Below the pieces are notes generated by a model. It worked only from the letters and a program-made list of their open reading frames with translations. It had not been told where the DNA came from and ran no database searches. Of a stretch of DNA of 64,000 nt, positions 10,049-64,000 are shown piece by piece. Position 1 is the stretch's first letter; each line of letters begins with the position of its first letter. The stretch is from the NCBI GenBank assembly GCA_017433415.1, contig JAFRHI010000016.1, forward strand, positions 2,684-66,683, in the 5' to 3' direction. This DNA is from Bacilli bacterium. Lineage in GTDB: Bacteria; Bacillota_I; Bacilli_A; RF39; UBA660. Both the position numbers and the translations under genes were made by a program.

Positions 10049-10084
10049 TTTTCTACTTCTTTTTTTATAGTTTTTAGAATAATA

Positions 10085-12274: not shown

Positions 12275-12390
12275 TTTTACTCTCCTTTCTTATCTTATGT
12301 ATAAAGCATAACATATCAATACAAAAAATGGAAGCATAAAATTATTTTGTATAAAAAATAATGGTAAATTGTTATAATATAAAAAATATT

Positions 12391-12879: not shown

Positions 12880-12897
12880 AATATCTCCTTATCATTA

Positions 12898-38332: not shown

Positions 38333-38401
38333 ATTATCACTCTCTAGTTAATTATATCATATTTTTTATAAAGTAAAACAAATTGCAATATATACAATTT
38401 G

Positions 38402-40105: not shown

Positions 40106-40226
40106 ACAGTACTTATTGTAAACAATTAATACATCAAATTGTTTGTATACAATTTAAGCTTAACTCAAAACCAAAAAAAAAGCAATACTATATTTTGTAT
40201 TACTTTAGAATTTTATATAATGTTTA

Positions 40227-41042: not shown

Positions 41043-41108
41043 GCTTTTTTTCCTTTCATCGGCAAGTTAATGCATATTATACCATATTTAATATTTAATT
41101 TCTATTTT

Positions 41109-41564: not shown

Positions 41565-41631
41565 ACTATCACCTATAATAATTTTATCATAAAAACATTT
41601 AAAGTAAATAAAAGATTGACTATAAGTCAAT

Positions 41632-43242: not shown

Positions 43243-43322
43243 AAATGTTTCCTCCTATGTATATTATACCAGGTAAAATAAAAACTTGCATAGTGCAAGT
43301 TTTGTTTTATGTTCTATAAGAT

Positions 43323-43829
43323 TTATTTTGATTTATTAATAACATCTTTTTTTGATAGTTCTGATTTTAATTCGGTAATTCTTCTTCGCCATTTTGCTCT
43401 TTGTACTGCTAATTTTTCATCTTTATCATAAGAATTTCTTAATTGTGTCATTAATATTGAAATCATTGCTTCCTGGTATTTTGAATTACCAGAATTTGCT
43501 AATAGTTCTATTGCTTTATATCCCATACGAAAAAGAACGTTTTTAAAATCACTACTATTTAATATAAAACAATCTATATCACTATAACGATATTGTTGCT
43601 CTGAAATCCTTTTCTTTATGACTTCAGCTTCAGAAATTGTCATCTTTTTCTTAGAGAAATCTCTCAGTATTGGTTGAATCATTACATCATTATTTAAAAA
43701 TAAACTTCTTAGGGTTGGAAAGTCTATTTCACCATCTTTAAATTGATTAATTATTTGAGAAAACAGCAAAATTTCATTATCTGTTAATGCTTCATCGTAT
43801 TTTATATATCTTTCTTTCATTATTTTCAC
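43323..43829 (-). CDS. hypothetical protein
   Basis: ORF only. Confidence 0.35.
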   Translation of the reverse strand: MKIMKERYIKYDEALTDNEILLFSQIINQFKDGEIDFPTLRSLFLNNDVMIQPILRDFSKKKMTISEAEVIKKRISEQQYRYSDIDCFILNSSDFKNVLFRMGYKAIELLANSGNSKYQEAMISILMTQLRNSYDKDEKLAVQRAKWRRRITELKSELSKKDVINKSK

Positions 43830-43933
43830 ATCCTTATTAATATTGTAGCATAAAAATTAATATATAAAAAACAACTTCTTTTGAAGTTGATACTATATAT
43901 AAAAATCTAACAAAAGTTAGAATAAATTACTCA

Positions 43934-44017
43934 TGGTGCGAGTAACAGGAGTTGAACCTGCACGTCTAAGACACTAGATCCTAAGTCTAGCGCGTCTGCC
44001 AATTCCGCCATACTCGC
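43934..44017 (-). tRNA. tRNA-Leu (anticodon TAG)
   Basis: Reverse complement GCGAGTATGGCGGAATTGGCAGACGCGCTAGACTTAGGATCTAGTGTCTTAGACGTGCAGGTTCAACTCCTGTTACTCGCACCA. Anticodon stem CTAGA/TCTAG with loop CTTAGGA, a long variable arm and an encoded CCA. Confidence 0.85.
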
Positions 44018-44024
44018 AATGCAA

Positions 44025-44101
44025 TGGTGGACCCTACAGGACTCGAACCTGTGACCGCCCGGTTATGAGCCGGATGCTCTAACCAACTGAGCTAAGGGTC
44101 C
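44025..44101 (-). tRNA. tRNA with CAT anticodon (tRNA-Ile2 lysidine type by similarity to ileX, or Met)
   Basis: Reverse complement GGACCCTTAGCTCAGTTGGTTAGAGCATCCGGCTCATAACCGGGCGGTCACAGGTTCGAGTCCTGTAGGGTCCACCA. The acceptor and D-arm resemble E. coli ileX (GGCCCCTTAGCTCAGTGGTTAGAGCA...CTCATAA). Confidence 0.85.
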
Positions 44102-44169
44102 GTTGCTATTTAATAATAGCATAATATCGCTTTCTATGCAAGCAAATATTAAAAAAAAGTAGATATTTT

Positions 44170-44589
44170 CTACTTATCTAACATGTTTAATAAATTAATT
44201 TTAAACATATCTTTTTCTGGGTTAGATTTTGAAATCATTACCCCTTTGTACGTTGAAAGTTCAGCACGATGTCCTTCATCTAAAATACCTTCTGGTGTAA
44301 TATTAGTTAACAATATAATTTTTTTCTCGGTATAGACAGTATAATGTAATACAATTGGTCCATGAACTTTTTGGAATAGTTCTGCAGTTGGTAATTGTAA
44401 TTCATAACTAACTGTTTTATCACGTTCATTATCGTTTACTTTTTTACCTAAAAATTTACCTTTTCTTAGTTCTGGATAGTATGTAAATGTTAATTTTTTA
44501 TAAGCTAACATATTATACTTTCTTACTGATCTTTCTTTTTTTCTAAAGTCATTTTCATCTAAATATTCAAATATATAATTGTTTTCCAT
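44170..44589 (-). CDS. hypothetical protein
   Basis: ORF only. Confidence 0.35.
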   Translation of the reverse strand: MENNYIFEYLDENDFRKKERSVRKYNMLAYKKLTFTYYPELRKGKFLGKKVNDNERDKTVSYELQLPTAELFQKVHGPIVLHYTVYTEKKIILLTNITPEGILDEGHRAELSTYKGVMISKSNPEKDMFKINLLNMLDK

Positions 44590-44702
44590 ATATATTCAAC
44601 CCCCTGATACATCTAAATACCTATTGTACCTTCAATGTATGCATATTATACCACAGATGTTGTATTTTGTCAAATATTTATTATATAGAAAAGAAAAAGA
44701 GC

Positions 44703-46838
44703 TTATTTATGATATTCATAAGCTCCTTCAAATTCCTCTTCAGCTAAAGAGTTAATATATTCATCAACTAATTGTTCATAATTGTCTTGATTAGAATTCA
44801 TACTGAATGGTTTCCCTGCATCGAAGTTTGCTCCCATGGCATTTGGATCTGGTAATGGATCATTGGTTTTATCACCAGATGGATCTGTAGTAATATTTTG
44901 AACTGAATCACTTAAATTACCATTACTATCTTTATAATCATCATAGAATGTTACGTTTCCGTTAAAATCACTCTCATTAACTTTCTCATTATTATTTATT
45001 TTATTATTGGCATTATTAATCTGATCTTGTAGATTTGCATTGTCATTTTCTACTTCTTGAGCAATTCTTCTAGCGTTTTCATCTTCTTCAGCTTGACGTT
45101 GTTGCTGACGGTTTTGAGCATCTCTTTCACCTGTTCTTCTGGAATTAGCATTTTCTTGAGCTATTTCAGCATCAATTTTTGCTTTTTCATCGGCTGGTAT
45201 TGGTTTTGACATACTTTCTTCGACTGTTTCATATGTAGTAACAGTTCCATAACTAATACTTCCTGTAAATTCTCCTTCTACCATTTCAAAGTGCCAATTA
45301 ACAGCATTTTGGAAAGCTGATAATCTACTTAAATCACGTTTAGCATCACTTACTACATAATTATTTCTTTCTTTTAATTCTTTTATAATTGCTTCCCTAT
45401 ATTGTTCATATGTTGGATTGGTCATATCTTCTTTACCATCCATTGTTAACATTACAATTTTTTCAAATTTTTTAGTTGCATAATCACATAATCCTAAGTC
45501 ATTAAGAAAGTCAATTTCACTATTATCTAATGTTAAATCTGATTCTAAATTCTGAAACATCATTTCTGCTGCTGCAATCATAGGAGTTACTGACAATTTA
45601 TATGATTCAATTTCTTGATAAGCATCAGCATGAGAAATACCCTCTGTTCTAATTTCTTTTGTTATAGGAAAATCAGTTCTTACAACATTGAAGAAATCAT
45701 TTATTTTCATTAATTTATCTGTACCAGTTGCCTCTTTTGCGTCAAGAAACAAGTTGTGATATTTAAAATAGAAATCTCTTCCTTCTTTACTATCTATTAA
45801 CCATGACATATCAACAGGATTTTGTCTTGTTTCAATTACATGAGCTCCCATTAATTGCAAAGTAGCATTTTTATAATCTCTAGCCATTTTAGATGAGTCT
45901 ACTATTGTCCCATTAAAATAAGCTTTTATTTGTTCAGGTGTAAAATCACTATATGCTTGTTGTAGTGAAACAATTTCATCAAAAGATAATGCTGCTTTTA
46001 CATCTTTTCCTTCTTCTAGATAAGCATTTGCAAATTTTGCATTAAAATTAGTTAATGTTGCATCTAAAAAATTCATTGAATCTCTTTGATGTTCATTTGT
46101 AGTTACTTCAAGTAGTTCACTATATGAATAATTGCTATATTCAGCATTAGTAGTTCCTTTATTTCCTGAATTAGGTGTATTATTAGCAGCGGTCATTGTT
46201 ACTAAATTACTATTTAACATATTTCCTTCTTTTGATTTTCTAGAGGCACAAGAATATAATCCTGCTCCTATAGCTAATGCTAAAACGACGGCAGCTACTC
46301 TTTTTATTATTCCTTTTTTATTTTTAGTCTTTTTTTCTTTGTTTGATGTCTTATAATTTGCTCTTTCTCGTCTTTCTCTTTCATAGTCATAGCCAGTTTC
46401 TTCTCTAATCAGGCGAGAAACCTGTTCTTCTTCTAGTGGATCAATACATTCTTCATTTGTTCTATTACCAATATAGATTTCTTCTTCATCACGAAACATT
46501 GACTCTTCTGGAACATCTATTATTATTTCTTTGCGTCCAGCTTCGGCTTCAAATCTTTCAAGTTCGGAAATTGTTTCGGCTGGTTTAGAAACAAGACCAC
46601 AGTAGTAATTATAATTTCTTATATATTCTTCTTCTGTTACGACATGAATTATTTCTTGATTAATTAGTTCTTTTAAGGCCTTCTTTGATCTTATTCCTTT
46701 GATTCTGGCTAATATCCCTGCTATTTCTATCCCCTCAGCATATGGGACTGTTTTAGAACTGCCATCATGATAAAAAATAGTGGCAATTTTTTTATTGTTT
46801 TGTTTATAAAAAACTATGTTTTTAATATTTTCTATCAT
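44703..46838 (-). CDS. bitopic membrane protein: ~180-aa cytoplasmic N-domain, one TM, ~500-aa extracytoplasmic domain with a Q/E/N-rich coiled-coil tail
   Basis: TM IIKRVAAVVLALAIGAGLY and a C-terminal QNRQQQRQAEEDENARRIAQEVENDNANLQDQINNANNKINN segment. Confidence 0.45.
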   Translation of the reverse strand: MIENIKNIVFYKQNNKKIATIFYHDGSSKTVPYAEGIEIAGILARIKGIRSKKALKELINQEIIHVVTEEEYIRNYNYYCGLVSKPAETISELERFEAEAGRKEIIIDVPEESMFRDEEEIYIGNRTNEECIDPLEEEQVSRLIREETGYDYERERRERANYKTSNKEKKTKNKKGIIKRVAAVVLALAIGAGLYSCASRKSKEGNMLNSNLVTMTAANNTPNSGNKGTTNAEYSNYSYSELLEVTTNEHQRDSMNFLDATLTNFNAKFANAYLEEGKDVKAALSFDEIVSLQQAYSDFTPEQIKAYFNGTIVDSSKMARDYKNATLQLMGAHVIETRQNPVDMSWLIDSKEGRDFYFKYHNLFLDAKEATGTDKLMKINDFFNVVRTDFPITKEIRTEGISHADAYQEIESYKLSVTPMIAAAEMMFQNLESDLTLDNSEIDFLNDLGLCDYATKKFEKIVMLTMDGKEDMTNPTYEQYREAIIKELKERNNYVVSDAKRDLSRLSAFQNAVNWHFEMVEGEFTGSISYGTVTTYETVEESMSKPIPADEKAKIDAEIAQENANSRRTGERDAQNRQQQRQAEEDENARRIAQEVENDNANLQDQINNANNKINNNEKVNESDFNGNVTFYDDYKDSNGNLSDSVQNITTDPSGDKTNDPLPDPNAMGANFDAGKPFSMNSNQDNYEQLVDEYINSLAEEEFEGAYEYHK

Positions 46839-46848
46839 ATTTTACCTC

Positions 46849-48846
46849 CTATTTTTCTTTTTTGGCTCCAGTATACTCCCAACCATTGTCTAGCAATTCT
46901 CTATTGTTGTAATAACTCCATGTTGTCTTTGTTGTGCCTTCTTCAATAATACTTCTATTTTTTGTACTTTGATAACATACATCTCCATATAATGGTTCAT
47001 CACGTGTAGCTTTTTCAGTTACCGTAATTGTTCCATAAATTGGAATTGTTTTTATTGTATATTCACCACAACTTGCATATCCTGTACTTGATGAAGATGA
47101 AGGTATTGTTGTAGTTGAGGAAACAGTTGATAAACCGCCAACATATGTATATGAATCATAATAATAATTTGGTAATGTCTCACATGTCTCACTACAATAA
47201 CTATAATCTGCACCTACAAATTTATAGTGTGTAGTATTAGTATCTCGTGGTGGATTAGAATAGCTTGCTCTACCATTATATCGCCAATTTCCTGTTGTTG
47301 CTGCAGTTGATCCAGATATATCATTTATTTTTACATAACTTGATGTTGTAGCATAAATCTTTTTATTTATTTCAATATAGTTGTATTTTGAACAAGATTT
47401 TTGTTGATAGAATCCTGTTTGCTCTATAACTTCTCTTGTTCTTGTATATGTTTTCTTATGATCACCAATTTTTTCTTTACGTTTATATAATTGCAATTTT
47501 CTTAGACATGATGGATTTTCATCAGAACAGTTTATTTCTTTTGTAGAACAACTTGTTTTTGACCAATCACTCCAACTTGTCCAGTTTGAATATATACTGT
47601 CTGTTGTTTTCTTATATTCATAAACATATTCTACTTTAATGCACTCTTTTTTATATTCTGTCTCTGTTACTACAGAACCATCTTTACCATAATATTTACC
47701 ATTATATTTTTCACAATAGTGTTTTGATTCTGGTTTTGTACACTCTTTTTTATATTGTGTCTCTGATACTACTGAGCCATCTTTACCATAATATTTACCA
47801 TTGTATTTTTCACAATAGTGTTTTTCATCTATTGTAATACATTGTTTTTTATATTCTTTTAGAGTTACAATCTCACCATTTTTACCATAATAATTGCCAT
47901 TGTGTTTTTTACAATAATATTTTGATTCTTGTTTTATACATTGTCTTTTATATTCTGTCTTATCAACAACATTTCCATTTTTACCATAATATATACCACT
48001 CTTTACTCTACACTTTAATGTCTCAGTAGGTGTTGGTTTTGATGGTGTTGTTTTACTAGGTTTTTTTGATGGAACATATTCTCCATCATGGATTGATCCT
48101 TTTATTGGAACAGTTGATGTTACTTCATCACTTCGTGTTACTGTAGCAGCTTGTTCTTTTTGACATATATATGAATCACAATATGTATAACATCCTAAAT
48201 GTACAAGAATATAATCTTCTTTTTCACTATCTTTTATATTTACTTTTAAGATATATTCATCATCTACTTTAGTAATTTTTACATAGCTTTTCTCTACATC
48301 ACAAGCTTTATTATTTTTATCAATAAGTGGTACTATTATCTTTTTACCAATCATATCACTTAATGTCATTTTATCTGATTGTCCAACTTCTTGTGGTAAT
48401 CTTTCATCAGTGTAGTATGATATAGCTGCTTCCTTCATTTTATCGATATTATTAGAAAAAATTTGTGATGAAATTGCTTTTAAAGCATCTTCGTTTTCAG
48501 CAGATTCACTAGTTGTTTTAGTTGTTTCTTTCTTATTTTTCTTTTTTGATGTAGTTTTATTTTTCTTTGTTGTTTTATCTTTTGACTTTGATTTAATTAC
48601 TTTTTCATTCTTTTTCTCAGTTTTATTATTGTTTTTATCCGAACCTTTTGACTTTTGCTTGTTTATAACTAAACCATTACTTATCTTGTTACTATTTTTA
48701 TTTGTATTTCCTTTAAAGGCTGGAATTACAAATCTTGTCAATAACCAAAAAAGTAGCAACAAAAAAAGTATAGTTAGAATAAGCTTGATTAAAAATCTTC
48801 TGATTGGAAATCCACGTCGTTCATATTCTTCTGTATACATATTCAA
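46849..48846 (-). CDS. bitopic membrane protein with Lys-rich linker and four or five Cys-containing ~30-aa YYGK(D/N)G repeats
   Basis: Repeats of the form (H/Y)YC(E/K)K(Y/H)NG(K/N)YYGK(D/N)G(S/E)VV.E..YKK(E/Q)C.K. Sits 11 bp downstream of the previous gene. Confidence 0.45.
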   Translation of the reverse strand: MNMYTEEYERRGFPIRRFLIKLILTILFLLLLFWLLTRFVIPAFKGNTNKNSNKISNGLVINKQKSKGSDKNNNKTEKKNEKVIKSKSKDKTTKKNKTTSKKKNKKETTKTTSESAENEDALKAISSQIFSNNIDKMKEAAISYYTDERLPQEVGQSDKMTLSDMIGKKIIVPLIDKNNKACDVEKSYVKITKVDDEYILKVNIKDSEKEDYILVHLGCYTYCDSYICQKEQAATVTRSDEVTSTVPIKGSIHDGEYVPSKKPSKTTPSKPTPTETLKCRVKSGIYYGKNGNVVDKTEYKRQCIKQESKYYCKKHNGNYYGKNGEIVTLKEYKKQCITIDEKHYCEKYNGKYYGKDGSVVSETQYKKECTKPESKHYCEKYNGKYYGKDGSVVTETEYKKECIKVEYVYEYKKTTDSIYSNWTSWSDWSKTSCSTKEINCSDENPSCLRKLQLYKRKEKIGDHKKTYTRTREVIEQTGFYQQKSCSKYNYIEINKKIYATTSSYVKINDISGSTAATTGNWRYNGRASYSNPPRDTNTTHYKFVGADYSYCSETCETLPNYYYDSYTYVGGLSTVSSTTTIPSSSSSTGYASCGEYTIKTIPIYGTITVTEKATRDEPLYGDVCYQSTKNRSIIEEGTTKTTWSYYNNRELLDNGWEYTGAKKEK

Positions 48847-54590: not shown

Positions 54591-55658
54591 TTATTTAGTC
54601 TTTTTATTATCATTTGAATTTACCGATAATATATATTTATATATAAAATTATCTTTTATAATAATAAATTCACTTTTATTGTTTTTCCGTATCTCTTTAA
54701 AGAGAATTGGATTTCCAATATTATCATGAATATCTTTTAATTCATTAAATGATTCAACATCAACAATTTCATATTCTTTTTCATCGATATGATGATTAAC
54801 ATTCGCAATTATCAAATCATACTCTCTTAAAATCTTTTTTAGTTTTTTCTTATATTCACCAACTTTACTATAATCATTAAGACCTAGTGTTTTTACTGCT
54901 TTGAGCATGGCGAATACTGTTACCAACATTGAAAAAAACGCAATTATAAAGTATTTAATGTTTCGTAAGAATAGATTCTTGTTTTCTTTTAAAATGTTAT
55001 ATGAACTTGCTGGTGTATCAGTAATTTGAACATCTATTGTTTGTTCTGTAAGAGGAATTACTAGTTCTGGAGCATCAGCTATATTTATCTCTTTATCTCC
55101 ATCTTTTGCTTTAGCATTTACATGCAAAACAATAGATACATCACTTACAGAATTTAAATCAAATGATGTTTTAAACTCTGCTATCAATGAGTTGTAATCA
55201 TTATAGTCAACTTTTAAATTTTCATTAATTAAAATATTATTTTTATTTTTTTCTTCTACTTTCTTTTCTTCTACTAAAACTTCGTTTTTCTGATATAATA
55301 CTGAAGTTTTAGTTACATCCCCATACACCTTAGTAGTTGCATCTATATAGTATGTATAATCATAATCCAAGGATTTTGAGGCTTCTATTTTATAATTGAT
55401 ATCTGTATCTATATAATCAATTAAAGAGGCAATATACTTCATATTCTTATCTAATACATTATTTTCATAATATGAATTTTCTTTTAGATGAACTTTATAA
55501 TCAATATTTGAAGATGAATTAACACTTACACCAGTTTCATCATTTAAAATACCCATAACGAGAAATTTAATAGACAAAAACAAACCTAAAACAAGTATTA
55601 GGAGCCAAATAATTATTTTTTTTGGTCTTATAACTTTTTTTGTTTTATCGTCTGTCAC
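54591..55658 (-). CDS. 2-TM membrane protein of unknown function in the SipW locus
   Basis: ORF with an N-terminal TM and a second TM near residue 270. Confidence 0.4.
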   Translation of the reverse strand: MTDDKTKKVIRPKKIIIWLLILVLGLFLSIKFLVMGILNDETGVSVNSSSNIDYKVHLKENSYYENNVLDKNMKYIASLIDYIDTDINYKIEASKSLDYDYTYYIDATTKVYGDVTKTSVLYQKNEVLVEEKKVEEKNKNNILINENLKVDYNDYNSLIAEFKTSFDLNSVSDVSIVLHVNAKAKDGDKEINIADAPELVIPLTEQTIDVQITDTPASSYNILKENKNLFLRNIKYFIIAFFSMLVTVFAMLKAVKTLGLNDYSKVGEYKKKLKKILREYDLIIANVNHHIDEKEYEIVDVESFNELKDIHDNIGNPILFKEIRKNNKSEFIIIKDNFIYKYILSVNSNDNKKTK

Positions 55659-55673
55659 ATTGTCACCTCATTT

Positions 55674-56816
55674 CTATCTATAGTTATTTAATAATACGGT
55701 AGGATATCCAATATATTTAATCTTATATTTTACTATACCAACCACTTGATCAGATAATACTAATAATTGATCTGAACTATCGTTGTTATCACCTTTAGTC
55801 TCATATAAAGTAGTTTTACCAGAATTGATTACTTTTATGATTCTATGGCATACAACTATATTTTCTTTTTTATATGCAATAACGTCTCCTTCATTAAAAT
55901 GTAAAAAATCACGTTCTGCTGTCTTATCAACAATTACGATATCACCAATATTAATATTTGGCTGCATTGATCCTGTCGCAATAACAAAAACCTGATACCG
56001 GAACAAACCGCTGACAAAGTAAATCATTATTAAACAAAATAAAATAATATTAATTCTAAAGAGATTTAATAGTTTTTTCTTTTCAATAATTACTATTTTT
56101 TTAGGATTTATTTTATCTATCTTGTGATATAACCACAAGAAAACAAGTATTGGTATTGTAATCCTTAGTACGGAATCTATATAATTACCAAACTTGGGAA
56201 AGATTGGTAAAATATATAATGGTAATTCCATAAAGAAACGGAATATAATGCTTGATTTATATCCTGCTTTAATTGATAAATAAGTTACTAATATATTTGT
56301 TGCCACTAAAGGCAATATAAATAAACCTAGTTGTTCTATTAAGTTCATTGCTTCATACGCAGATGATGAAACAATTCCACTAATAATGATTGTATTATTT
56401 ATAAGGGTAAATGCAATAAACGATAACACTATTAGTGTTTTATAGTTCTTCGCTCTTGTATTTATTACATATCTTAAAACCTCACACGCTATAATATTTA
56501 TTATAACTGGAAAGGTATTTAGAAATATTGTTTTTATTTCTGTATTGTAGATATTTTTTGTAAAACCAATGAAATATCCTATAATATAGATTACTAAGTA
56601 ATAAAATATTAAATAGGCCGTGATCGAAAGGACAACGTCCTTTTCGATCAGGCTTTTATTCTTTTCATATCCTAATTGCCATATTGCTATTCCTAATAAT
56701 AGTATGGTTACAAGGAATAAAGTATATCCATTTAATATTTTAAAAAAGATATTTACTATTGATAATATTATAATTAAACTTAATATTCCTATTACAAGAA
56801 AATCATTCTTTTTCAT
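55674..56816 (-). CDS. sipW: SipW-type (ER/archaeal-type) signal peptidase I fused in frame to an N-terminal polytopic membrane domain of ~250 aa
   Basis: C-terminal 120 aa ATGSMQPNINIGDIVIV...GDVIAY...VCHRII...TKGDNNDSSD aligns with B. subtilis SipW (SGSMEP...GDVITF...VTHRIV...TKGDNN). No stop codon separates it from the upstream 7-8 TM region. Confidence 0.65.
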   Translation of the reverse strand: MKKNDFLVIGILSLIIILSIVNIFFKILNGYTLFLVTILLLGIAIWQLGYEKNKSLIEKDVVLSITAYLIFYYLVIYIIGYFIGFTKNIYNTEIKTIFLNTFPVIINIIACEVLRYVINTRAKNYKTLIVLSFIAFTLINNTIIISGIVSSSAYEAMNLIEQLGLFILPLVATNILVTYLSIKAGYKSSIIFRFFMELPLYILPIFPKFGNYIDSVLRITIPILVFLWLYHKIDKINPKKIVIIEKKKLLNLFRINIILFCLIMIYFVSGLFRYQVFVIATGSMQPNINIGDIVIVDKTAERDFLHFNEGDVIAYKKENIVVCHRIIKVINSGKTTLYETKGDNNDSSDQLLVLSDQVVGIVKYKIKYIGYPTVLLNNYR

Positions 56817-56851
56817 TGTAATTTATCCTTTTTTATTTCTATTTTTTATTC

Positions 56852-57460
56852 TTAAGAAGCTGCTGCTTGATCATATGTAAATGAAGTTGTACTTAATGTG
56901 ATAGCAACATCACCACTGATTTCTGCAGCATCACCAGCAGCATATGTTAATACCATTGTAACAGCCTTTTCTCCACTAGCATTTAGTGGTAAAGTTAGAC
57001 CTGTTGTACCAGATGTAACAGCAGTTCCGCCATAAGTAAATGCTACAGATAATTTTTGACATAACGCAGTTGCTTCTGCTTGAGTAGCAGCACTTCCTGT
57101 TGCAGGTGCACAAGAAAGGCTTCCTAATGTAACGCCTGACAATGTAGCGTTGATGTCTCCATCATTTTTAACTTTCCAAGTATAAGTAATTGTATCTCCA
57201 GGAGCTTTTACAGTTCCCATAAATCCTGAGATTGATTGATCTCCTGTTTGAATTGCAAGTGTCTTTCCTGTAACATTTGCATATCCTGTTGGAGTACCTC
57301 CATCTAAGTCAATCCATTTAATTTTCCATGCTGATGCAGCTGTAGCTGTACCTTCTACTGTTAATGTAGAAGTAAATCCAGCGTAGGCAATACTTAAACC
57401 TACTACTGAGAATAACAATGCAGCGATTGCTATTATTTTAAATCCTCTATCTTTTTCCAT
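56852..57460 (-). CDS. TasA/camelysin-like secreted protein with SipW-cognate class signal peptide
   Basis: RGFKIIAIAALLFSVVGLSIAYAGFTSTLTVEG (cf. TasA/CalY LIGGGTFAYFND), then a Gly/Thr/Ala-rich beta-type domain. Confidence 0.55.
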   Translation of the reverse strand: MEKDRGFKIIAIAALLFSVVGLSIAYAGFTSTLTVEGTATAASAWKIKWIDLDGGTPTGYANVTGKTLAIQTGDQSISGFMGTVKAPGDTITYTWKVKNDGDINATLSGVTLGSLSCAPATGSAATQAEATALCQKLSVAFTYGGTAVTSGTTGLTLPLNASGEKAVTMVLTYAAGDAAEISGDVAITLSTTSFTYDQAAAS

Positions 57461-57620
57461 ATTTTTTCCTCCTATTTTCTATAAAAATTTGTTTGTAGTT
57501 GTACTCTACATTTACCCTACATTACAATTATATATTATGTATATATCCATTTCAACTACATTTTTCTATGTTGTCAATTACTTTACACTGAAAATTAAAA
57601 AGATTAATTTCTTAATCTTT

Positions 57621-58289
57621 TTAGTTAACTGAACTATAAGCTATTGTAATATCTCCAAACTCAACATCAAACGGACCATCGGCTGTATCGCCACCAGCTA
57701 AATATTCAATTGTTACTATTATCTCTTCTGAAGATCCCACGGCTACTGAATGTCCAGTTATTGCTGCAACTGATTGTGTATATAAAGTTCCGCTTAATGA
57801 TACTGTAACGCGAATATCGTCACAAGCAGCTTGGACTAGTGTGTTGTTTGCAGCATTAGGTCCAGTTGTCTCTTTTGGCGTACATACACGCGGTTCATTT
57901 TTACCTGATACATTGGCATAAGCAATAGATTTTAAATATGCTGTATATTGTCCGGTGTTTTTAGTATAAAAAGTGTACTGTGCTTTTTGATTTGGTTCAG
58001 TAAATACAGCATGTAAATCTTTTATTATTAAACTATTACTATTTGTGTCAATTGTTGCATTTGTAGCAGTTGCTCCAGTACCAGTTACTGTAGGATTTAC
58101 TGGATCTGTTGATACAACATCATCTCTTGTAGAAAAAATAACATTAAAATCTGTTCCAGCCGGATTTACTTCAGCACTTGATTTAATGGTTAGGGTTTGT
58201 TCAAAAGCAGCAAAGCCAATAGATAATCCTAATACTGCTACAAAAAGTGCAACTATACTTAGTGTTTTTACTTGTTTTTCCTTATTCAT
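57621..58289 (-). CDS. second TasA/camelysin-like secreted protein with SipW-cognate signal peptide
   Basis: MNKEKQVKTLSIVALFVAVLGLSIGFAAFEQTLTIK. The start was trimmed to the Met that follows GGAG. Confidence 0.5.
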   Translation of the reverse strand: MNKEKQVKTLSIVALFVAVLGLSIGFAAFEQTLTIKSSAEVNPAGTDFNVIFSTRDDVVSTDPVNPTVTGTGATATNATIDTNSNSLIIKDLHAVFTEPNQKAQYTFYTKNTGQYTAYLKSIAYANVSGKNEPRVCTPKETTGPNAANNTLVQAACDDIRVTVSLSGTLYTQSVAAITGHSVAVGSSEEIIVTIEYLAGGDTADGPFDVEFGDITIAYSSVN

Positions 58290-58361
58290 TATTCCACTCC
58301 ATTCTCTATCAATATAAGTATAACATACTATCAAAATTTTTAGTAATTTATTTTTTTGACT

Positions 58362-58396
58362 TTACACATAAAAAAGCTAAGTATTACTTAGCTTTT
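58362..58396. terminator. rho-independent terminator (palindrome flanked by A/T tracts)
   Basis: AAAAAAGCTAAGTATTACTTAGCTTTTTT lies immediately 3' of the Ham1 gene on the minus strand. Confidence 0.6.
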
Positions 58397-58941
58397 TTAT
58401 TTAAATATTCAATTAATTGTTTATATCCTGTATCATTCCACATTTTAAGTCGAACATCATCTTTAAATGATCCTAGGGTTTTAGTTTGACCTTTGGGAAT
58501 AAAAATAAAGTCCCAACTCCAACCATATTTTCCTTGAACTTTTCGAGAAATAGTTCCTTCTGTGATTGATTTAAATACAACTGGTTCTTTACCATATTCA
58601 CAATATGCTAATACTTGAACAAATTTGGCTTTTCTGTTTTCTTCACCCCTCAGTAATTTTAATATTCCTTTCTCTCCTATTGTATCACTAACATAATGCG
58701 TATAGGCAGCTGGAAAACCATTTAGGGCATCTATCATAATACCAGTATCATTTTTAACGACATTACATTTTAATTTATCTGATGCATATTTAGCAGAATA
58801 TGCTGCTACTTCTTCGATTGTATTGGCTTGAATTTCTATTGTGTCCATTTTGACATTATCGACTTCATAACCAAAAGGTTCTAAGAATTCTTTGGCTTGA
58901 ACAATTTTTGCCCAATTTCCTGTTACTAAAGTTATTTTCAT
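58384..58941 (-). CDS. rdgB: non-canonical purine NTP pyrophosphatase (RdgB/Ham1 family)
   Basis: MKITLVTGNWAKIVQAKEFL (cf. IVLATGNPGKVRE) and C-terminal WSWDFIFIP (cf. FGYDPIF). Confidence 0.75.
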   Translation of the reverse strand: MKITLVTGNWAKIVQAKEFLEPFGYEVDNVKMDTIEIQANTIEEVAAYSAKYASDKLKCNVVKNDTGIMIDALNGFPAAYTHYVSDTIGEKGILKLLRGEENRKAKFVQVLAYCEYGKEPVVFKSITEGTISRKVQGKYGWSWDFIFIPKGQTKTLGSFKDDVRLKMWNDTGYKQLIEYLNKKAK

Positions 58942-59618
58942 TTTTTATTCCTTCTTTCATTTTTATTTATTTCTTTTTCAATTATTTTTATTATTTCATT
59001 ATAGGCATTTTCATTTTCTATATTAATTTTTTCTATTCTGTTTTTATAATCTTTGACGTATTCCCGATATAACTTGGCACAATCATATAATATTTTCTTT
59101 TCTGAAGCGGTATATTTAGGATAATTTAATTTTAAGTCTCTTTTTTCAGCTCTTTTGATAGAGTTTTCAATATTTCCATCAAGAAAAATTGTTTTTTGAG
59201 GGAGGATATTAAAATTTTGGAGGAACTTATAAATCATCTTAGAGTATTCCTTAGCGGAGCCAGCATACTTTTTGGCTAGCATTATACCCTCTACTATGCA
59301 GATAGTATCATATCCCCTATCACTAATTACAATTTTCCCACTATTTATTGCTGGTACAATTATGTTTTCTTCATCAAATGATTGTTTTGCGGCTATTAAA
59401 AGTGTTTCAGCTTTCGGATTACCTAGATCAAAAAATCTGCTATTAGTTGAAGAAAGAACATTATATAACGTTTCTGTATAACCTTTATAATTACCATCTG
59501 TTATTTCACCATTAAAAATAATATTTTTGTTATCTTTATACTGTTCTTTTAATTTATTAAAAAAATATGTTTTCCCTATACCGCTTATTCCTTCAATAGT
59601 TATTAAACAACCTTTCAT
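58938..59618 (-). CDS. deoxynucleoside/NMP kinase-like P-loop kinase (dNK/Tmk fold)
   Basis: ITIEGISGIGKTYF P-loop with the IEG..G.GK arrangement typical of dNK/Tmk. Overlaps rdgB by 4 nt. Confidence 0.55.
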   Translation of the reverse strand: MKGCLITIEGISGIGKTYFFNKLKEQYKDNKNIIFNGEITDGNYKGYTETLYNVLSSTNSRFFDLGNPKAETLLIAAKQSFDEENIIVPAINSGKIVISDRGYDTICIVEGIMLAKKYAGSAKEYSKMIYKFLQNFNILPQKTIFLDGNIENSIKRAEKRDLKLNYPKYTASEKKILYDCAKLYREYVKDYKNRIEKINIENENAYNEIIKIIEKEINKNERRNKK

Positions 59619-59619
59619 A

Positions 59620-60156
59620 TTATTCTAAATAACCTCTTTCCCAGAAAAAATTGACCCATTGTCGTTGTGTAATTTTATTTACAAAAATAATATCCATGTT
59701 TTCATTATCTAGAGTTAATTTTTCCATATCTTCATTTAGAATCAAAGAATATATAGCTAGTACTTTTTTATTCTTTTTTAATAATTCATTTACTAATATA
59801 TTAACACTTCGACCATGACTTACTATATCTTCAAATATTATATATTTATCTACTGAATCATCTACTGTCGAACTAATTATTTCGGCTGTTCCATAATCCC
59901 ATTTTTCATTTGAATTAGTCATTTTAATCTGAACAGTATCAACTCTTCTTATTCCTATTCGATGTGATATTGCTATGGCTAATGGTAAACCACCTCTGGC
60001 CACTCCTATTATTCCAAATTTTTCATTATTAAAATTTTTTTCTATATCTTTGCTTATCAAAGCAACTGCTTCAAGAAAATCTTTTTCATTAAATTTTATT
60101 TTAATTTTAGGATTTCCATCATTTAATAACTTATTTTCTTTTAGACAACGTTTCAT
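59620..60156 (-). CDS. xanthine-guanine phosphoribosyltransferase (Gpt)-like PRTase with divergent PRPP motif
   Basis: GIIGVARGGLPLAIAISHRIGIRRVDTVQIK aligns with E. coli Gpt [31 protein letters not shown]. The PRPP loop is YIIFEDIVSHGRS in place of FIVIDDLVDTGGT. Confidence 0.6.
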   Translation of the reverse strand: MKRCLKENKLLNDGNPKIKIKFNEKDFLEAVALISKDIEKNFNNEKFGIIGVARGGLPLAIAISHRIGIRRVDTVQIKMTNSNEKWDYGTAEIISSTVDDSVDKYIIFEDIVSHGRSVNILVNELLKKNKKVLAIYSLILNEDMEKLTLDNENMDIIFVNKITQRQWVNFFWERGYLE

Positions 60157-60165
60157 TTTATTCTC

Positions 60166-60843
60166 CTATTTTAATAAAGGATCAATTAAATTATTTTTTT
60201 TAAATCCTTCTATTCTATCTCTACAAGCTGTACATCTTTGACATGGCTTTTTCTTGTTTTCATAACATGTCCAGGTTTTTTCAAAAGGTACATCTAGTTC
60301 TATTCTAAGTTTTATTACTTCAGCTTTTAGCATATTAACTAGTGGAGCTTCTACTTTTACTTTGTTTCCGCTACCAATATAAATAGCTAAATTCATGGCC
60401 AGATTAAAGTTTTCACAACAATCTGGGTATAGTGTTGTTGCTATTCCCTCATTATGAATCCCATAATATATTTTATCTATTTTCTTACTTATAGCGATAC
60501 TTGTTGCGATAGATAATAATATGCCATTTCTGAAGGCAATATTTGTAGAGACTTCTTTTATATTATTTTTCAGTTGTTCTTGATAGCTTATTTTAGGCAG
60601 TTCAACATTTGATGATTTTAACATGGATGATGACGAGTACTTGAATAATTCTTTTATGTTCATACAGATTTGTTCTACATTATAATACTTACATAGTTCT
60701 TTAGCTTTTAGTAATTCTTTACTATTTTTTTGACCATAGTCGAAGCTTAAGGCTATAACGTTCTTTTTCCCATATTCCTTGATTGCTTTGGCTAAACAGA
60801 CACTACTATCAAGGCCACCGCTAAATATTACTAATACTTTCAA
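60166..60843 (-). CDS. queC: 7-cyano-7-deazaguanine (preQ0) synthase
   Basis: PP-loop VIFSGGLDSSVCL, FDYGQKN, LYPDCCENF and C-terminal Zn site CYENKKKPCQRCTACRDR. These align throughout with B. subtilis QueC. Confidence 0.85.
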   Translation of the reverse strand: MKVLVIFSGGLDSSVCLAKAIKEYGKKNVIALSFDYGQKNSKELLKAKELCKYYNVEQICMNIKELFKYSSSSMLKSSNVELPKISYQEQLKNNIKEVSTNIAFRNGILLSIATSIAISKKIDKIYYGIHNEGIATTLYPDCCENFNLAMNLAIYIGSGNKVKVEAPLVNMLKAEVIKLRIELDVPFEKTWTCYENKKKPCQRCTACRDRIEGFKKNNLIDPLLK

Positions 60844-62273
60844 TTTTTCTCCTCCAATACTCTAGCCATTAATACTCCTGATGCAGAAGCCATCATAAGT
60901 CCAATAGTTAATCCTCCACCTGTACCAATTGAATAGAGATTTTTTAGTGATGTTTCAAAATTTTTATTTATTATCAGTTCATTCCCATAGAACTTTATTT
61001 CTGGTCCATACATTAGATTATCATTATTGGCAAATCCAGGAATTATTTTATCTACTCTTTGAATAAATTCAATCAAATTATTTATTGTCCGATAATCAAG
61101 GATATAACTTAGATCATATGGATATGCTGACTCCATTGTTGGTTTTATTGAATTTTTTTTCATTTTTTGAGAAGTTGTTTTTTCTTTGTTCAATAAATCT
61201 CCAAATCTTTGAACTATTACAGTGCCACCACTTATTAAATTGGCTTTTTGGGCTATATTAAATCCATACTCAATCGGTTGATGAAAGGGAGAAGAAAATT
61301 TATATGATACTAATATTGCAAGGTTAGTATTATTACTTTTTTTATCTTTATAGGCATGTCCGTTTACTAGAGTATAACCATTATCATATGTCTCTGGTGT
61401 AACAAAACCACTTGGGTTTTGACAATATGTTCTTATTTTGTCGTTGTAACATTTTGAATGAGCTATTATTTTACTCTCATATAACAAATCATTTACATAT
61501 TGCATTGTACTGTTTGCCAATTCATAACGAATTCCTATATCCATATAGCCATTTCTCTTTTTTATTTTATATTTTAAACACAGTTGTTCTAACCAACTTG
61601 AACCATCTACTCCAACAGCAAGAATAACTTTATCAGCGTATATTTTTTTGTTTTTACTAATAATACCAATAACTTTTTTGTCTTCTACTATTAAATCAAT
61701 TATTTCTTCTTCAAAGAGCATATCAACTTTTTTTTCTAAATATTTTTCTAATTTATAAAATAATTCATGGGATTTTTCGGTACCTAAATGTCTAATTGGA
61801 ACATCTATTAATGATAATTTTTCTTTTTTGGCCTTTTCTTGTAAATCATGTATTTCTGTTATTCTTTCCATTCCTTTTAAAGAACTTGCTTCTCCAAATT
61901 CTAAGTAGATGTTATCAACATATTTCATTACCGCTTTTATTTTAGAATTTGGATAATATTTTTTTATATAACTATCATCTTTACCACCAATATATAAATC
62001 TTTTGCAGATTTATTATATGATGATAAATGATATGATAATAATTTACCATCAGAGAATGCTCCAGCTCCAGAAAAGCCTCCTATTATATTGCATATAGGT
62101 TTACATTTTAAACATTTTCCTGTATCTTTTATGGGACAAATCCTCTTCTCTACTCTTTTACCTTTATCAATTAAAAGGATTTTCTTTTTTGATTTTATTT
62201 TTGTTAATTCATAGGCACAAAATATTGAACTAGGACCCATACCAACTATTATTACATCATATTTGTCTTGCAT
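60840..62273 (-). CDS. FAD-dependent oxidoreductase (COG2509-like)
   Basis: N-terminal YDVIIVGMGPSSIFCA dinucleotide-binding fold, internal Cys pair CLKCKPIC and C-terminal GGGLTIG. Overlaps queC by 4 nt. Confidence 0.55.
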   Translation of the reverse strand: MQDKYDVIIVGMGPSSIFCAYELTKIKSKKKILLIDKGKRVEKRICPIKDTGKCLKCKPICNIIGGFSGAGAFSDGKLLSYHLSSYNKSAKDLYIGGKDDSYIKKYYPNSKIKAVMKYVDNIYLEFGEASSLKGMERITEIHDLQEKAKKEKLSLIDVPIRHLGTEKSHELFYKLEKYLEKKVDMLFEEEIIDLIVEDKKVIGIISKNKKIYADKVILAVGVDGSSWLEQLCLKYKIKKRNGYMDIGIRYELANSTMQYVNDLLYESKIIAHSKCYNDKIRTYCQNPSGFVTPETYDNGYTLVNGHAYKDKKSNNTNLAILVSYKFSSPFHQPIEYGFNIAQKANLISGGTVIVQRFGDLLNKEKTTSQKMKKNSIKPTMESAYPYDLSYILDYRTINNLIEFIQRVDKIIPGFANNDNLMYGPEIKFYGNELIINKNFETSLKNLYSIGTGGGLTIGLMMASASGVLMARVLEEKN

Positions 62274-62923
62274 AATTTTTTATTTCTTCCTTTTTCATTT
62301 CTTTCAAAACCATATATATCATTTAATTGTTCTAATAGTTTTTTTCTTTCTTCTTCTTTTGTTTTTAAATAAGCACATGTAATTACATGACATGTTTTTA
62401 CTACATCCTCTAATGATAATTCTGTTGTATCTATTCCTACATAAGGAATATTATAACTATGGAGAAATTCTAACATTGTAGCATACCCATCAGCTAGAGC
62501 CTCTGGATTATCTAGATCTTCATCATAAGGATTTCTTTTTCTAATTCTTTTGATTCTTTCTTCTGTTGGTGCATATAACAAGAATGTTAAATCTGGTATT
62601 ACTCCTAGTGATAAAATTGTTTCTAGCATTTTCTTATTAATATTATCTTTTTCATAGTACGCTAAGGAAGTTATACTTCTTTCGACTATAGAATCAAAAC
62701 TATCTGAGTTATCAATCATACATCTTAATGTAAAGAATAAAGCTGACATTTTTTTGTTATTACTATTTCTAACATAATTTACAAATTCTTTATAAAATTC
62801 TTTATCCATTCCTAATTTATCGATTAATTTTTGTTCAAAATGTTCATATCCTAAACTTTTTGCTAGTAATTTCGCAACTGAACTTTTTCCTACTCCATCC
62901 ATTCCTTCAATAGCAATATTCAT
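62252..62923 (-). CDS. thymidylate-kinase-like P-loop NMP kinase
   Basis: IAIEGMDGVGKSS (cf. Tmk I.FEG.DGAGK.T). Overlaps the oxidoreductase gene by 22 nt. Confidence 0.55.
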   Translation of the reverse strand: MNIAIEGMDGVGKSSVAKLLAKSLGYEHFEQKLIDKLGMDKEFYKEFVNYVRNSNNKKMSALFFTLRCMIDNSDSFDSIVERSITSLAYYEKDNINKKMLETILSLGVIPDLTFLLYAPTEERIKRIRKRNPYDEDLDNPEALADGYATMLEFLHSYNIPYVGIDTTELSLEDVVKTCHVITCAYLKTKEEERKKLLEQLNDIYGFERNEKGRNKKLCKTNMM

Positions 62924-62931
62924 AAATCCTC

Positions 62932-63591
62932 CTAATTATTTTCTAATTTTTTATACGCATTAATTATTTTATATGTTAGTGGTGTTGCAATGGCTTCATA
63001 TGTTACTTTCCAGGTATATTGGCTAACAATCATTGTAAGTACTACTGATGTTGGAACTGTTCCTATGAATGCTATTGTTGCAAATAGTAAAGTATCTAGT
63101 AATTCACCTACTATTGTGGAACCAATTGTTCTCATCCATAAATGTTTTCCTTTAGTTAATTTCTTTATCAAGTCTAGTGTAAAGGCATTAGATAGGCTAC
63201 CTATTAACATTGCTGATAGAGATGCAATAAACATTCTAGGTGTTGTTCCAAGTATACTTGCATATTCATTTTGTAAATTCCAGGTGGCGGCTGCTGGTAA
63301 CTTTATTGTTAGTACGTAGAACAATGCCATAAATGCATTACAACTGAATCCTAATAGAATAACAAATCTGGCTTTTTTATATCCATATACTTCAGCTATA
63401 ATATCACCAATAATATATGTAATTGGAAATAACAGAGCTGATGTAGGTAGTACAATCTTTCCAATACTAAATAACTTAATAGATGTTGTATTAGATATTA
63501 GTAATAATACTGTAGACATTACTGTTATTAAGACAAAGTATAGTGAATATTTTTCCTTTCTTATATTTTCTTTCTTTTCGTTTCTTTTCAT
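62932..63591 (-). CDS. yhhQ: queuosine-precursor (preQ0/preQ1) transporter, YhhQ/DUF165 family
   Basis: FPITYIIGDIIAEVYGYKKARFVILLGF aligns with E. coli YhhQ FPLTYITGDIVAEVYGFRAARRVIWTGL; six TMs. Confidence 0.8.
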   Translation of the reverse strand: MKRNEKKENIRKEKYSLYFVLITVMSTVLLLISNTTSIKLFSIGKIVLPTSALLFPITYIIGDIIAEVYGYKKARFVILLGFSCNAFMALFYVLTIKLPAAATWNLQNEYASILGTTPRMFIASLSAMLIGSLSNAFTLDLIKKLTKGKHLWMRTIGSTIVGELLDTLLFATIAFIGTVPTSVVLTMIVSQYTWKVTYEAIATPLTYKIINAYKKLENN

Positions 63592-63745
63592 TGCATATTC
63601 CTCCTTAATTGCATTATAATTCGATATTTAAAAAAAGAATAATGCTTATTTTTTTGGATACTTATTAGTTTTTTTTATTAAAAATTTAAGTTATTATGAC
63701 ACTAAAAAAAGTTATACTAAATAACTTTTATATTTAATATAACTT

Positions 63746-64000
63746 TTATTTATAATTACCATTATTTAATACTTTTCTTAAAACTTTATTAGCACTTTCT
63801 TCTTCTATAACTCTTGGATCATGATATTTTATTTCAGTATAGTTATCTACTTTTATTGTTGGAATATTGGCCCTTAAGGCAGCATCTATTCCTCTTTTTG
63901 AATCTTCTATTGCCAAGGAATCTTCAGGTTTTATTCCTACTATTTCTAAAGCTTGGAGATATGCTTCCTCATCGGGTTTTAATTTTTTTACATCTTCTCT
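63746..64000 (-). CDS. HAD-IA family phosphatase (C-terminal part; N-terminus lies beyond the window end)
   Basis: Minus-strand translation ...DVKKLKPDEEAYLQALEIVGIKPEDSLAIEDSKRGIDAALRANIPTI... is the HAD motif III region (K-x-KP ... EDS..G..AA). This ORF is absent from the supplied ORF track because it runs off the window. Confidence 0.55.
   Translation of the reverse strand, partial: REDVKKLKPDEEAYLQALEIVGIKPEDSLAIEDSKRGIDAALRANIPTIKVDNYTEIKYHDPRVIEEESANKVLRKVLNNGNYK

Follow-up and report, generated by a model that had tools for sequence, protein, structure and literature searches.

A conserved operon of gut Bacilli that may assemble 7-deazaguanine nucleotides from a salvaged base

Queuosine precursors are micronutrients shared within gut communities, and to our knowledge all current models route salvaged 7-carboxy-7-deazaguanine (CDG), 7-cyano-7-deazaguanine (preQ0) and 7-aminomethyl-7-deazaguanine (preQ1) to tRNA through tRNA-guanine transglycosylase (TGT). 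Outside tRNA, QueC-family chemistry and preQ0-type bases have been described for dpd DNA modification, Cap9 and QatC (PMC13329287), and in the tubercidin cluster of Streptomyces TubE is a proven transferase that joins CDG to phosphoribosyl pyrophosphate (PRPP) (PMC6112128). Among gut bacteria, a QueC-only ‘CDG salvage’ genotype has been inferred for 62 of 2,228 genomes (PMC6593275). Here we describe a stretch of 64,000 nucleotides from a Bacilli bacterium, referred to as the window (GenBank assembly GCA_017433415.1, contig JAFRHI010000016.1, positions 2,684 to 66,683 of the forward strand), and within it a minus-strand unit of seven genes (58384-63591) that runs YhhQ, kinA, COG2509 flavoprotein, QueC, phosphoribosyltransferase (PRTase), kinB, Ham1. 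The gene set is genuine and conserved, and it seems not to have been described before. The reading that fits it best is a variant of PRPP-dependent assembly of 7-deazapurine nucleotides that draws on salvage, and we think it reasonably probable that it makes 7-deazaguanine nucleotides from a salvaged base, in place of or in addition to the use of that base in tRNA. The contigs and loci compared below are numbered L001 to L069, L001 being the window’s own contig, which runs on past the window end.

As in the toyocamycin (toy) and tubercidin (tub) clusters of Streptomyces, a QueC-family enzyme is paired with a purine-type PRTase, and one related locus, L051, adds QueD and QueE. In contrast to those clusters, the base would be imported via YhhQ, the window is devoid of QueD, QueE and FolE, and the operon adds two kinases, Ham1 and a flavoprotein with a four-cysteine (Cys4) motif; it carries no phosphatase, and its hosts are low-GC gut Bacilli. 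The PRTase linked to QueC belongs to the 6-oxopurine class, and it is likened to ToyH and TubE by its predicted role. The toyocamycin/tubercidin logic had been put forward in an earlier note on this sequence. Conservation of the gene set, the rarity of the PRTase and its link to QueC support that idea indirectly; the role it gave to a HAD phosphatase and the eight-gene unit it assumed did not stand, as detailed below. Pfam families for GMP-reductase, PurA, PurB-like enzymes or phosphatases (HAD/Nudix) were not found in the operon, and the product should stay guanine-type, because genes of the GMP-reductase, PurA or PurB-like kinds are missing.

For the scheme that follows, we infer every substrate, the order of the steps and the fate of the nucleotide. 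YhhQ would import the queuosine-precursor base, CDG and/or preQ0. The variant QueC would amidate/dehydrate the 7-carboxyl group to 7-amido-7-deazaguanine or preQ0, either before the PRTase step, on the free base, or later, on the nucleotide that the PRTase has formed. The PRTase would join the base and PRPP into a 5'-mononucleotide, as TubE does with CDG, and kinB would phosphorylate this mononucleotide. The deoxynucleoside kinase (dNK)/VakA-like kinA would probably add a further phosphorylation, or may serve in nucleoside rescue. Ham1 could return the triphosphate to the monophosphate and so limit the pool, and the Cys4 flavoprotein may provide a redox tailoring step. We judge a nucleotide- or nucleoside-type metabolite to be the most probable outcome and rate incorporation into nucleic acid lower.

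The gene special to the cluster is the PRTase (59620-60156, minus strand; 178 amino acids; PF00156, 3e-10), a Gpt-like type I enzyme that we propose, from its sequence, to be a 7-deazaguanine (preQ0 or CDG) PRTase. It lies below every NCBIfam equivalog cut-off, with 39 bits against 138 for the xanthine PRTase model NF006613 and 35 against 150 for TIGR01203. A word-indexed search of 5.8 billion proteins returned 89 matches, nearly all above 54% identity, and an exhaustive phmmer search of 1.84 billion representatives returned 137, 36 and 4 matches at E ≤ 1e-3, 1e-10 and 1e-30, respectively; the family is nearly confined to clusters of this kind. So small a family (137 of 1.84 billion representatives) argues that the enzyme is not a housekeeping Hpt or Gpt. 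This bears on an unlikely alternative, in which the PRTase, the kinases and Ham1 perform the purine/deoxynucleoside salvage and pool sanitation of a reduced-genome lineage and the flavoprotein has a housekeeping role. The 6-oxopurine PRTase fold would suit such a role, but the PRTase clade is far too rare for housekeeping, the PRTase scores far below the Hpt/Gpt cut-offs, the kinases score below those for dTMP and CMP kinases, and the loop aspartate of 6-oxopurine PRTases is missing.

The AlphaFold model of the PRTase (pLDDT 90.6) predicts a type I PRTase fold with PRPP loop and pyrophosphate loop. The structures that it resembles most are 6-oxopurine PRTases, namely Sulfolobus HGXPRT, the P. 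horikoshii purine PRTase and the XGPRTs of E. coli, Yersinia and H. pylori. Foldseek TM-scores to E. coli Gpt/XGPRT and the archaeal HGXPRTs range from ~0.6 to 0.8, and hhalign pairs the protein with E. coli Gpt at 92% probability, although the identity to Gpt is only ~20% and the N-terminus of the window PRTase is ~30 residues longer. Common to the two proteins are the SRGG/ARGG loop, the acidic pair within the PRPP loop (E109-D110, in EDIVSHGRS versus DDLVDTGGT of Gpt) and the C-terminal base-binding motif W-[IV]-x3-W-[DE], which reads W167-V...W172-E173 in the PRTase and W134-I...W139-D140 in Gpt. The E. coli Gpt and B. subtilis QueC reference sequences served for motif positions only, which agree with the PDB matches and with published motif definitions. 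The loop aspartate, Asp92 in Gpt, is replaced with Ser113. The earlier note had described the enzyme as a guanine/xanthine-type PRTase with a remodelled PRPP loop.

Across the close PRTase clade the Asp92-equivalent residue is Ser, Ala or Tyr, and distant relatives mostly have the canonical D-[ST]-G. The equivalent residue of human HGPRT, Asp137, contacts the purine N7, and loss of the loop aspartate would show the pattern expected of a PRTase for a guanine isostere that has no N7. The clade represents a candidate 7-deazaguanine PRTase family, with the Gpt-like W-x4-W-E motif and the replaced loop aspartate as its signature.

QueC (60166-60843, minus strand; 225 amino acids) is a variant subtype of the 7-cyano-7-deazaguanine synthase family, with 165.8 bits on TIGR00364 (cut-off 150.3) and a match to PF06508 at 4e-55. 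Mutagenesis has validated Y35, R99, Y131 and Y189 as essential QueC residues (PMC13329287, from which we also took the motif definitions), and equivalents of all four are kept in the cluster QueCs. Six cluster orthologues show no variation in the loop SGGLDS (SGGxDS), Y36, R105, Y139 (in YPDC) or Y194 (in C-Y), and the window QueC also retains Arg105-Asn106, YPDC, the Cys-Tyr zinc motif and the canonical length. Two features set the subtype apart in all cluster QueCs and in L051. In place of YxQxHxxE they have YGQKNxxE, in which Asn takes the position of the His, and their zinc motif is C(x)7CxxCxxC, not C(x)8CxxCxxC. In addition, the window QueC has IAFRN where VPxRN is expected. The analysis defines a QueC subtype marked by the His to Asn change.

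The operon’s first gene encodes a queuosine-precursor transporter of the YhhQ/QPTR family (COG1738; 62932-63591, minus strand; 219 amino acids; PF02592, 4e-50; TIGR00697, 114.8 bits against 50.95), a family that is heterogeneous in substrate specificity (PMC5372724). No motif or homologue of QueD, QueE, FolE, QueF or Tgt was found in the window, as had been claimed, or within 10 kb beyond its end, when the contig was extended upstream of the HAD gene. Crude motif expressions for tgt, queA, queF, queD, queE and folE, together with tblastn using the L051 QueD and QueE, also found none in the window or in the other loci fetched, and FolE, QueD and QueE are absent from the other YhhQ-type loci.

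An independent connection to 7-deazaguanine synthesis is provided by L051, in which a compact cluster (8394-13028) has the order CYTH (221 amino acids), S-adenosylmethionine (SAM) radical enzyme (radical SAM, 277 amino acids), PRTase, Tmk/dNK-like kinase, QueC, QueD, QueE. Its PRTase is 56% identical to that of the window, its QueD scores 89 bits on TIGR03367, and its QueE scores 138 bits on TIGR03963 over the full model length. A second contig, L069, from a metagenome-assembled genome (MAG) at NCBI, has CYTH, radical SAM, PRTase and kinase, followed by the N-terminus of a QueC of the same subtype at the contig end (8463-11356); PRTase identities for L051 and L069 range from 56 to 60%. These two loci are putative compact de novo 7-deazapurine nucleotide clusters in uncultured Firmicutes, judging by their gene content. 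Three architectures link the PRTase clade to QueC, and in one of them QueD and QueE follow. Because the L051 QueC shares both subtype features, the clade appears to travel with a dedicated QueC subtype, in de novo (QueD/QueE) and in salvage (YhhQ) versions. That relatives of the PRTase adjoin the same QueC subtype supports a 7-deazaguanine as its substrate.

To assess conservation, species-representative genomes and metagenomes were scanned with a PRTase alignment and then searched by tblastn with all cluster proteins. The order YhhQ, kinA, flavoprotein, QueC, PRTase, kinB, Ham1 is kept in ~30 contigs with protein identities of 40-90%. These contigs come from gut and rumen samples and from MAGs that bear the names Erysipelotrichaceae, Clostridium sp. 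CAG:1000, Bacilli and Clostridia. Recurrence in ~30 independent contigs places the gene association far beyond chance, and the earlier proposal thereby survives one of the findings that would have counted against it, a neighbourhood not conserved among relatives. The flavoprotein is present in every YhhQ-type locus. Variants lacking QueC or the second kinase recur among the related loci. In L006, L007 and L045, Ham1 stands between the flavoprotein gene and QueC and YhhQ is of a different subtype (29% identity), and L040 has an extra radical SAM gene after Ham1. In L049 the upstream genes seem to be missing and the PRTase is fused in frame to a membrane protein; we took this to be a deletion or an assembly artefact.

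A number of observations weigh against nucleotide assembly. The PRTase lacks the loop aspartate, and adenine PRTase has Ala at this position; because PRTases for other bases also lack the residue, its absence is no proof of a 7-deaza substrate. The link to QueD and QueE is known from a single contig (L051), and the link to the QueC subtype, beyond the YhhQ-type loci, from two (L051, L069). QueC is absent from L004, L039, L041 and L054, which retain the rest of the cluster, and kinB is absent from L036 and from L006, L007 and L045. L009 and L010, which have no such cluster, each contain a lone Ham1 orthologue (75-89% identity), and flavoprotein homologues of 57-59% identity occur alone in Clostridia with no other cluster gene nearby. 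Since such close homologues stand alone elsewhere, Ham1 and the flavoprotein may have general roles and merely share the transcript. The operon also names no end point for the pathway, because it encodes no phosphatase, exporter or polymerase.

Several of these observations favour a simple explanation, to which we assign a low probability, namely that YhhQ and QueC salvage CDG or preQ0 for tRNA queuosine, with tgt and queF located elsewhere, and that the other genes are only co-transcribed. YhhQ and QueC without QueD and QueE are a recognised signature of CDG/preQ0 salvage (PMC5372724; PMC6593275), so that the oddness formerly attached to a QueC without QueD and QueE disappears, and this genotype, the close stand-alone homologues of Ham1 and the flavoprotein, and the loss of QueC from loci that keep the rest are all as expected under ordinary salvage. 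The operon differs from queuosine-precursor salvage, however, in that the transcript of YhhQ and QueC also carries a PRTase, two kinases, Ham1 and a flavoprotein, and not queF, tgt or queA, in the variant QueC with His replaced by Asn in YxQxHxxE, and in the lack of a preQ1 riboswitch. Moreover, relatives of the PRTase adjoin the same QueC subtype, and in L051 they do so together with QueD, QueE and a tailoring radical SAM enzyme, which is not a housekeeping context.

Turning to the enzymes that would act on the nucleotide, kinB (58938-59618, minus strand; 226 amino acids) starts 1 nt after the PRTase stop codon and overlaps Ham1 by 4 nt at its end. It is a Tmk-like nucleoside-monophosphate (NMP) kinase (PF02223, 1e-14) with a Tmk-type DR[Y/G] motif read by eye and with matches to Tmk only; its score on TIGR00041, 60.2 bits against a cut-off of 83.25, indicates that it is not a dTMP kinase equivalog. 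The P-loop kinase kinA (62252-62923, minus strand; 223 amino acids) overlaps the flavoprotein gene by 22 nt and is dNK/Tmk/Cmk-like (PF02223, 7e-13; PF13189, 9e-8; PF01712, 4.5e-7; TIGR00041, 34.9 bits against 83.25), with a dNK-type ERS motif, again read by eye, and a match to the PADLOC model VakA at 2.6e-16. Its orthologues, of 41-62% identity, are found in all loci that cover the kinA position. Both kinases lie below the dTMP and CMP kinase cut-offs, and for Tmk they pass only the broad PF02223. The prediction of two dNK/Tmk-like kinases was correct as to their presence; the labels had been swapped, the dNK match belonging to 62252-62923 and the Tmk-only matches to 58938-59618. Both show only weak similarity to PRTase-linked kinases elsewhere.

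Ham1 (58384-58941, minus strand; 185 amino acids; PF01725, 1e-32, 114 bits) is an archaeal-type Ham1/RdgB non-canonical purine nucleoside triphosphate (NTP) pyrophosphatase, and both the family assignment made earlier and the fold relatives agree with this. It falls short of the equivalog scores (172.8 bits against 203 for NF011396; 137.5 against 145.35 for TIGR00042), its best PDB relatives are Mj0226 (1e-32) and PH1917 (1e-28), and its last ~24 residues remain unaligned to the PDB homologues, PF01725 or TIGR00042. Every complete locus has an orthologue (72-91% identity), and L028, a cluster with a more distant PRTase, contains a Ham1 that is 55% identical. Just upstream of the lone Ham1 genes lie remnants of a PRTase C-terminus of 21-35 codons (L009 10001-10105, L010 5038-5100), which suggests that the cluster was deleted there and Ham1 kept.

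The flavoprotein (60840-62273, minus strand; 477 amino acids) is an oxidoreductase dependent on flavin adenine dinucleotide, assigned to PF21688 (COG2509 according to the earlier note) by family hidden Markov model (HMM) and by fold, in a family of thousands of members. Its invariant Cys4 motif, R-x-C-P-x6-C-x2-C-K-P-x-C (residues 44-61; C46, C54, C57 and C61), is also kept in the stand-alone Clostridia proteins, and AlphaFold gives very low confidence for residues 47-86. The Cys4 stretch could form an Fe-S or zinc site. One structural relative was noteworthy, the uncharacterised protein 3NLC. The operon offers a first functional context for the uncharacterised COG2509 flavoproteins.

Around more distant PRTases (35-45% identity) we found sister clusters of several types. 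In L011, L027, L057 and L060 they comprise NUDIX, radical SAM, PRTase, Tmk-like kinase and DegT aminotransferase. A second type, which spans L028-L030 and L058, has FemAB, a 214-amino-acid protein, radical SAM, PRTase, Ham1 and kinase in L028 and L030; the N-terminus of the 214-amino-acid protein looks NDK-like by eye, and no family search matched it. In L031 the PRTase is accompanied by glycosyltransferases and an AAA_18 P-loop protein, and in L055 by YhhQ, radical SAM, a GT1 glycosyltransferase, a PIG-L deacetylase and a reverse-transcriptase-like open reading frame (ORF). In the NUDIX/DegT and FemAB types a Tmk/dNK-like kinase (PF02223/PF01712) follows the PRTase and Ham1 or NUDIX belongs to the same cluster; the L028 and L027 kinases resemble kinB weakly (~28% identity, E 1e-7 to 1e-5). 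The radical SAM enzyme of the sister clusters shows weak viperin and MoaA similarity. With this enzyme, the kinase and Ham1 or NUDIX beside the PRTase, L011, L027 and L028 have the composition of a module for making non-canonical nucleotides. We rejected it as a hidden QueE, as it scores 27-30 bits on the QueE models and L051 has a separate full-length QueE. On their gene content, the sister clusters look like nucleoside-type biosynthetic clusters, and the modular variation of the tailoring enzymes from one type to the next favours small-molecule biosynthesis over nucleic-acid modification.

The latter possibility would have the operon supply 7-deaza-(d)GTP that polymerases build directly into DNA or RNA with no need of a transglycosylase, as a mark of self versus non-self or a shield against restriction, and we regard it as quite improbable. 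Two kinases would carry a nucleotide past the monophosphate, Ham1 could tune the triphosphate pool, and no TGT/DpdA-like gene was found in the window or its flanks. Phage T4 relies on such a pair, an NTP pyrophosphatase plus an NMP kinase of its own, to build modified deoxynucleoside triphosphate pools. On the other side, none of the loci links the operon to a polymerase, ribonucleotide reductase, nuclease or restriction partner, and the glycosyltransferases, aminotransferases and FemAB of the sister clusters point to small-molecule tailoring. None of the viral contigs searched encodes the PRTase, which also led us to reject a phage origin of the operon. The T4 dCTPase/dNMP kinase pathway and viperin with its kinases likewise set NMP kinase(s) and an NTP pyrophosphatase beside a base- or nucleotide-modifying enzyme; the context here is neither phage nor defence, in contrast to both, and the entry would be a PRTase acting on an imported base.

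A further elaboration of nucleotide assembly, to which we give only modest credence, is that the precursors are diverted from tRNA to a free pool of 7-deazaguanosine di- or triphosphates, to be made into a signal or antimetabolite by the flavoprotein or polymerised without a transglycosylase. It is similarly doubtful that under such diversion the sister clusters would use a radical SAM enzyme resembling MoaA, together with a CYTH triphosphate-tunnel enzyme, in place of the flavoprotein. Were either outcome true, 7-deazaguanines in the microbiome would have a destination not known before, and PRPP-dependent 7-deazapurine pathways would for the first time be found beyond the antibiotic clusters of actinomycetes.

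Least probable of all, and in our judgement very unlikely, is an anti-phage or antimicrobial role in which a toxic analogue of a nucleotide would be made by viperin-like logic, dedicated kinases feeding a modifying enzyme. The idea has some appeal because kinA matches the PADLOC models VakA and PDC-M51B, because the radical SAM enzyme of the sister clusters has its weak viperin/MoaA similarity, and because the 7-deazapurine nucleosides toyocamycin and tubercidin are known toxins. Nevertheless, there is no defence-island context, the neighbours being TasA/SipW-type and metabolic genes, dependence on an imported precursor would be odd for immunity, and no sensor or effector gene is present. In the proposed reading the operon shares with dpd, Cap9 and QatC the use of QueC-family chemistry with a preQ0-type base outside tRNA; unlike the QueC-like defence proteins, its QueC keeps the canonical catalytic residues and length. 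Searches with PADLOC and Pfam detected no DpdA/TGT-like protein, DpdB, CD-NTase, QatA, QatB or QatD in the operon or its flanks. A defence system was rejected as a candidate, since PADLOC gave only kinA against VakA/PDC-M51B and a generic QueC match.

The boundaries of the operon could be defined from the sequence. All eight minus-strand ORFs predicted earlier were found at their given positions, and the domain calls hold in HMM searches of the eight proteins. The seven genes from YhhQ to Ham1 are tightly packed, with junctions between a 22-nt overlap at the extreme and a 9-nt gap. The terminator claimed for the operon end is present as a hairpin with T-run over the Ham1 stop codon, an intrinsic-terminator-like element seen in the sequence (AAAAAAGCTAAG / TAATA / CTTAGCTTTTTT; 58370-58398, minus strand). 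A consensus terminator scan overlooks it, as the scan demands at least three G-C pairs.

At the other end, the gap between the HAD gene and yhhQ measures 154 nt, not 165 bp as had been stated, and the single eight-gene transcript proposed before has to be reduced to seven genes, the HAD gene being cut off by a terminator hairpin. This hairpin, an AT-rich stem of 17 bp followed by seven T residues, was found by RNA folding directly 3' of the HAD stop codon (63703-63747, minus strand), and matching hairpins occupy the equivalent place in L003, L004, L005, L040, L041, L044 and L054. It is followed by a promoter-like region with a short leader (63592-63660, minus strand), identified by aligning the sequence upstream of yhhQ from 12 loci, in which a conserved A-rich/TATTTTTC-like element precedes a -10 TATAAT (63613-63618) and the ribosome-binding site (RBS) AAGGAGG (~63601-63607); the TATAAT-bearing element lies ~20-25 nt ahead of the RBS. 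The order of terminator, promoter-like element and RBS is kept at the HAD-YhhQ position in about a dozen related loci. As the hairpin with its T-run and the promoter-like element both lie in the 154-nt gap, the HAD gene most likely has a transcript of its own.

The HAD-IA hydrolase itself (63746-64000, minus strand; PF13419, TIGR01509) is represented in the window by its C-terminal 84 amino acids, of 222 in full. Past the window end, L001 continues with the full HAD gene, a 339-amino-acid protein with N-terminal CYTH domain, a 341-amino-acid protein that is weakly class I methyltransferase-like and a LysR regulator. HAD is thus the last gene of a LysR/methyltransferase-like/CYTH/HAD module (L001 2819-6411, corresponding to window ~63746-67338), which also occurs in L023-L026 and L034, and of which the hairpin at 63703-63747 is the terminator. 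In L023-L026 the module, or a CYTH-HAD fusion, occurs without any core gene nearby, and HAD is missing from most core-bearing loci (absent in L003, L004, L005, L036, L040 and L044). On both grounds we assign HAD to the neighbouring unit. The idea of HAD as a counterpart of ToyI is accordingly dropped, since a terminator sets HAD apart, most loci lack it and its module occurs independently. The module’s CYTH protein (~340 amino acids) represents a narrow family of 246 matches, all Bacilli-type, and the short CYTH proteins that head the L051 and L069 clusters are unrelated to it. A functional tie between CYTH proteins and the nucleotide pathway is possible.

Riboswitch control of the operon was considered and rejected. 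An Rfam scan of 56000-64000 gave no match at E ≤ 1, and the leader scanned alone matched no family. The only PreQ1 match, an A-rich stretch hit by chance, has E = 5.3 and 11.9 bits where the gathering score is 39, and the yhhQ leader, at only ~20-25 nt, is too short for a riboswitch. In the one lineage without the LysR module (L013, 6340-6500), the yhhQ leader is ~130 nt long. It starts at a TTGACA/TATAGT promoter, may include an ORF of 27 codons, and ends immediately ahead of the RBS in a strong terminator hairpin that contains G+C. From its sequence this leader looks like an attenuator, and a comparison with Rfam yielded terminator hairpins only and no family match.

A search of the full-text literature on QueC, PRTase, Ham1, YhhQ, COG1738 and COG2509 found no description of the cluster, in line with the view that the architecture is new for Firmicutes. 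A 2026 genome-mining preprint on 7-deazapurine clusters could not have found the operon, because its search was anchored on QueE. Neither a 2026 survey of the QueC family nor two papers on the YhhQ/QPTR family mention a neighbourhood with PRTase, kinase or Ham1. If nucleotide assembly is the correct reading, a free pool of 7-deazaguanine nucleotides would be a second sink for the precursors, bearing on competition for these vitamers, and uncultured Bacilli would be a possible source of new nucleoside antimetabolites or signals. Annotation is also at stake, as the genes are now named hypoxanthine-guanine PRTase, thymidylate kinase and XTP/dITP diphosphatase.

Some other minus-strand genes in this part of the window were noticed as well. 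At 37214-48846, a long run of ORFs of up to 711 amino acids without Pfam match adjoins a protein with type IV pilin N-methylation motif, a MarR/SarA-type regulator, a thioredoxin-reductase-like protein and an Mbeg1-like protein; Pfam annotation of the 37-49 kb region as context for the operon gave mostly no family match and was uninformative. The segment 49139-52379 encodes a PP-loop ATPase (PF01171, 273 amino acids), a SAM methyltransferase, an AAA/ABC-type ATPase and a PfkB-family kinase. In the recent QueC-family survey, one QueC-like cluster almost always adjoins a PfkB-domain protein. Directly downstream of the operon (54591-58334) lie genes for two TasA/camelysin-like secreted proteins with SipW-type signal peptides, a 380-amino-acid membrane protein whose C-terminal part is a signal-peptidase (S26) domain, and a DUF5305 protein, which form a biofilm-matrix-type locus unrelated to the operon.

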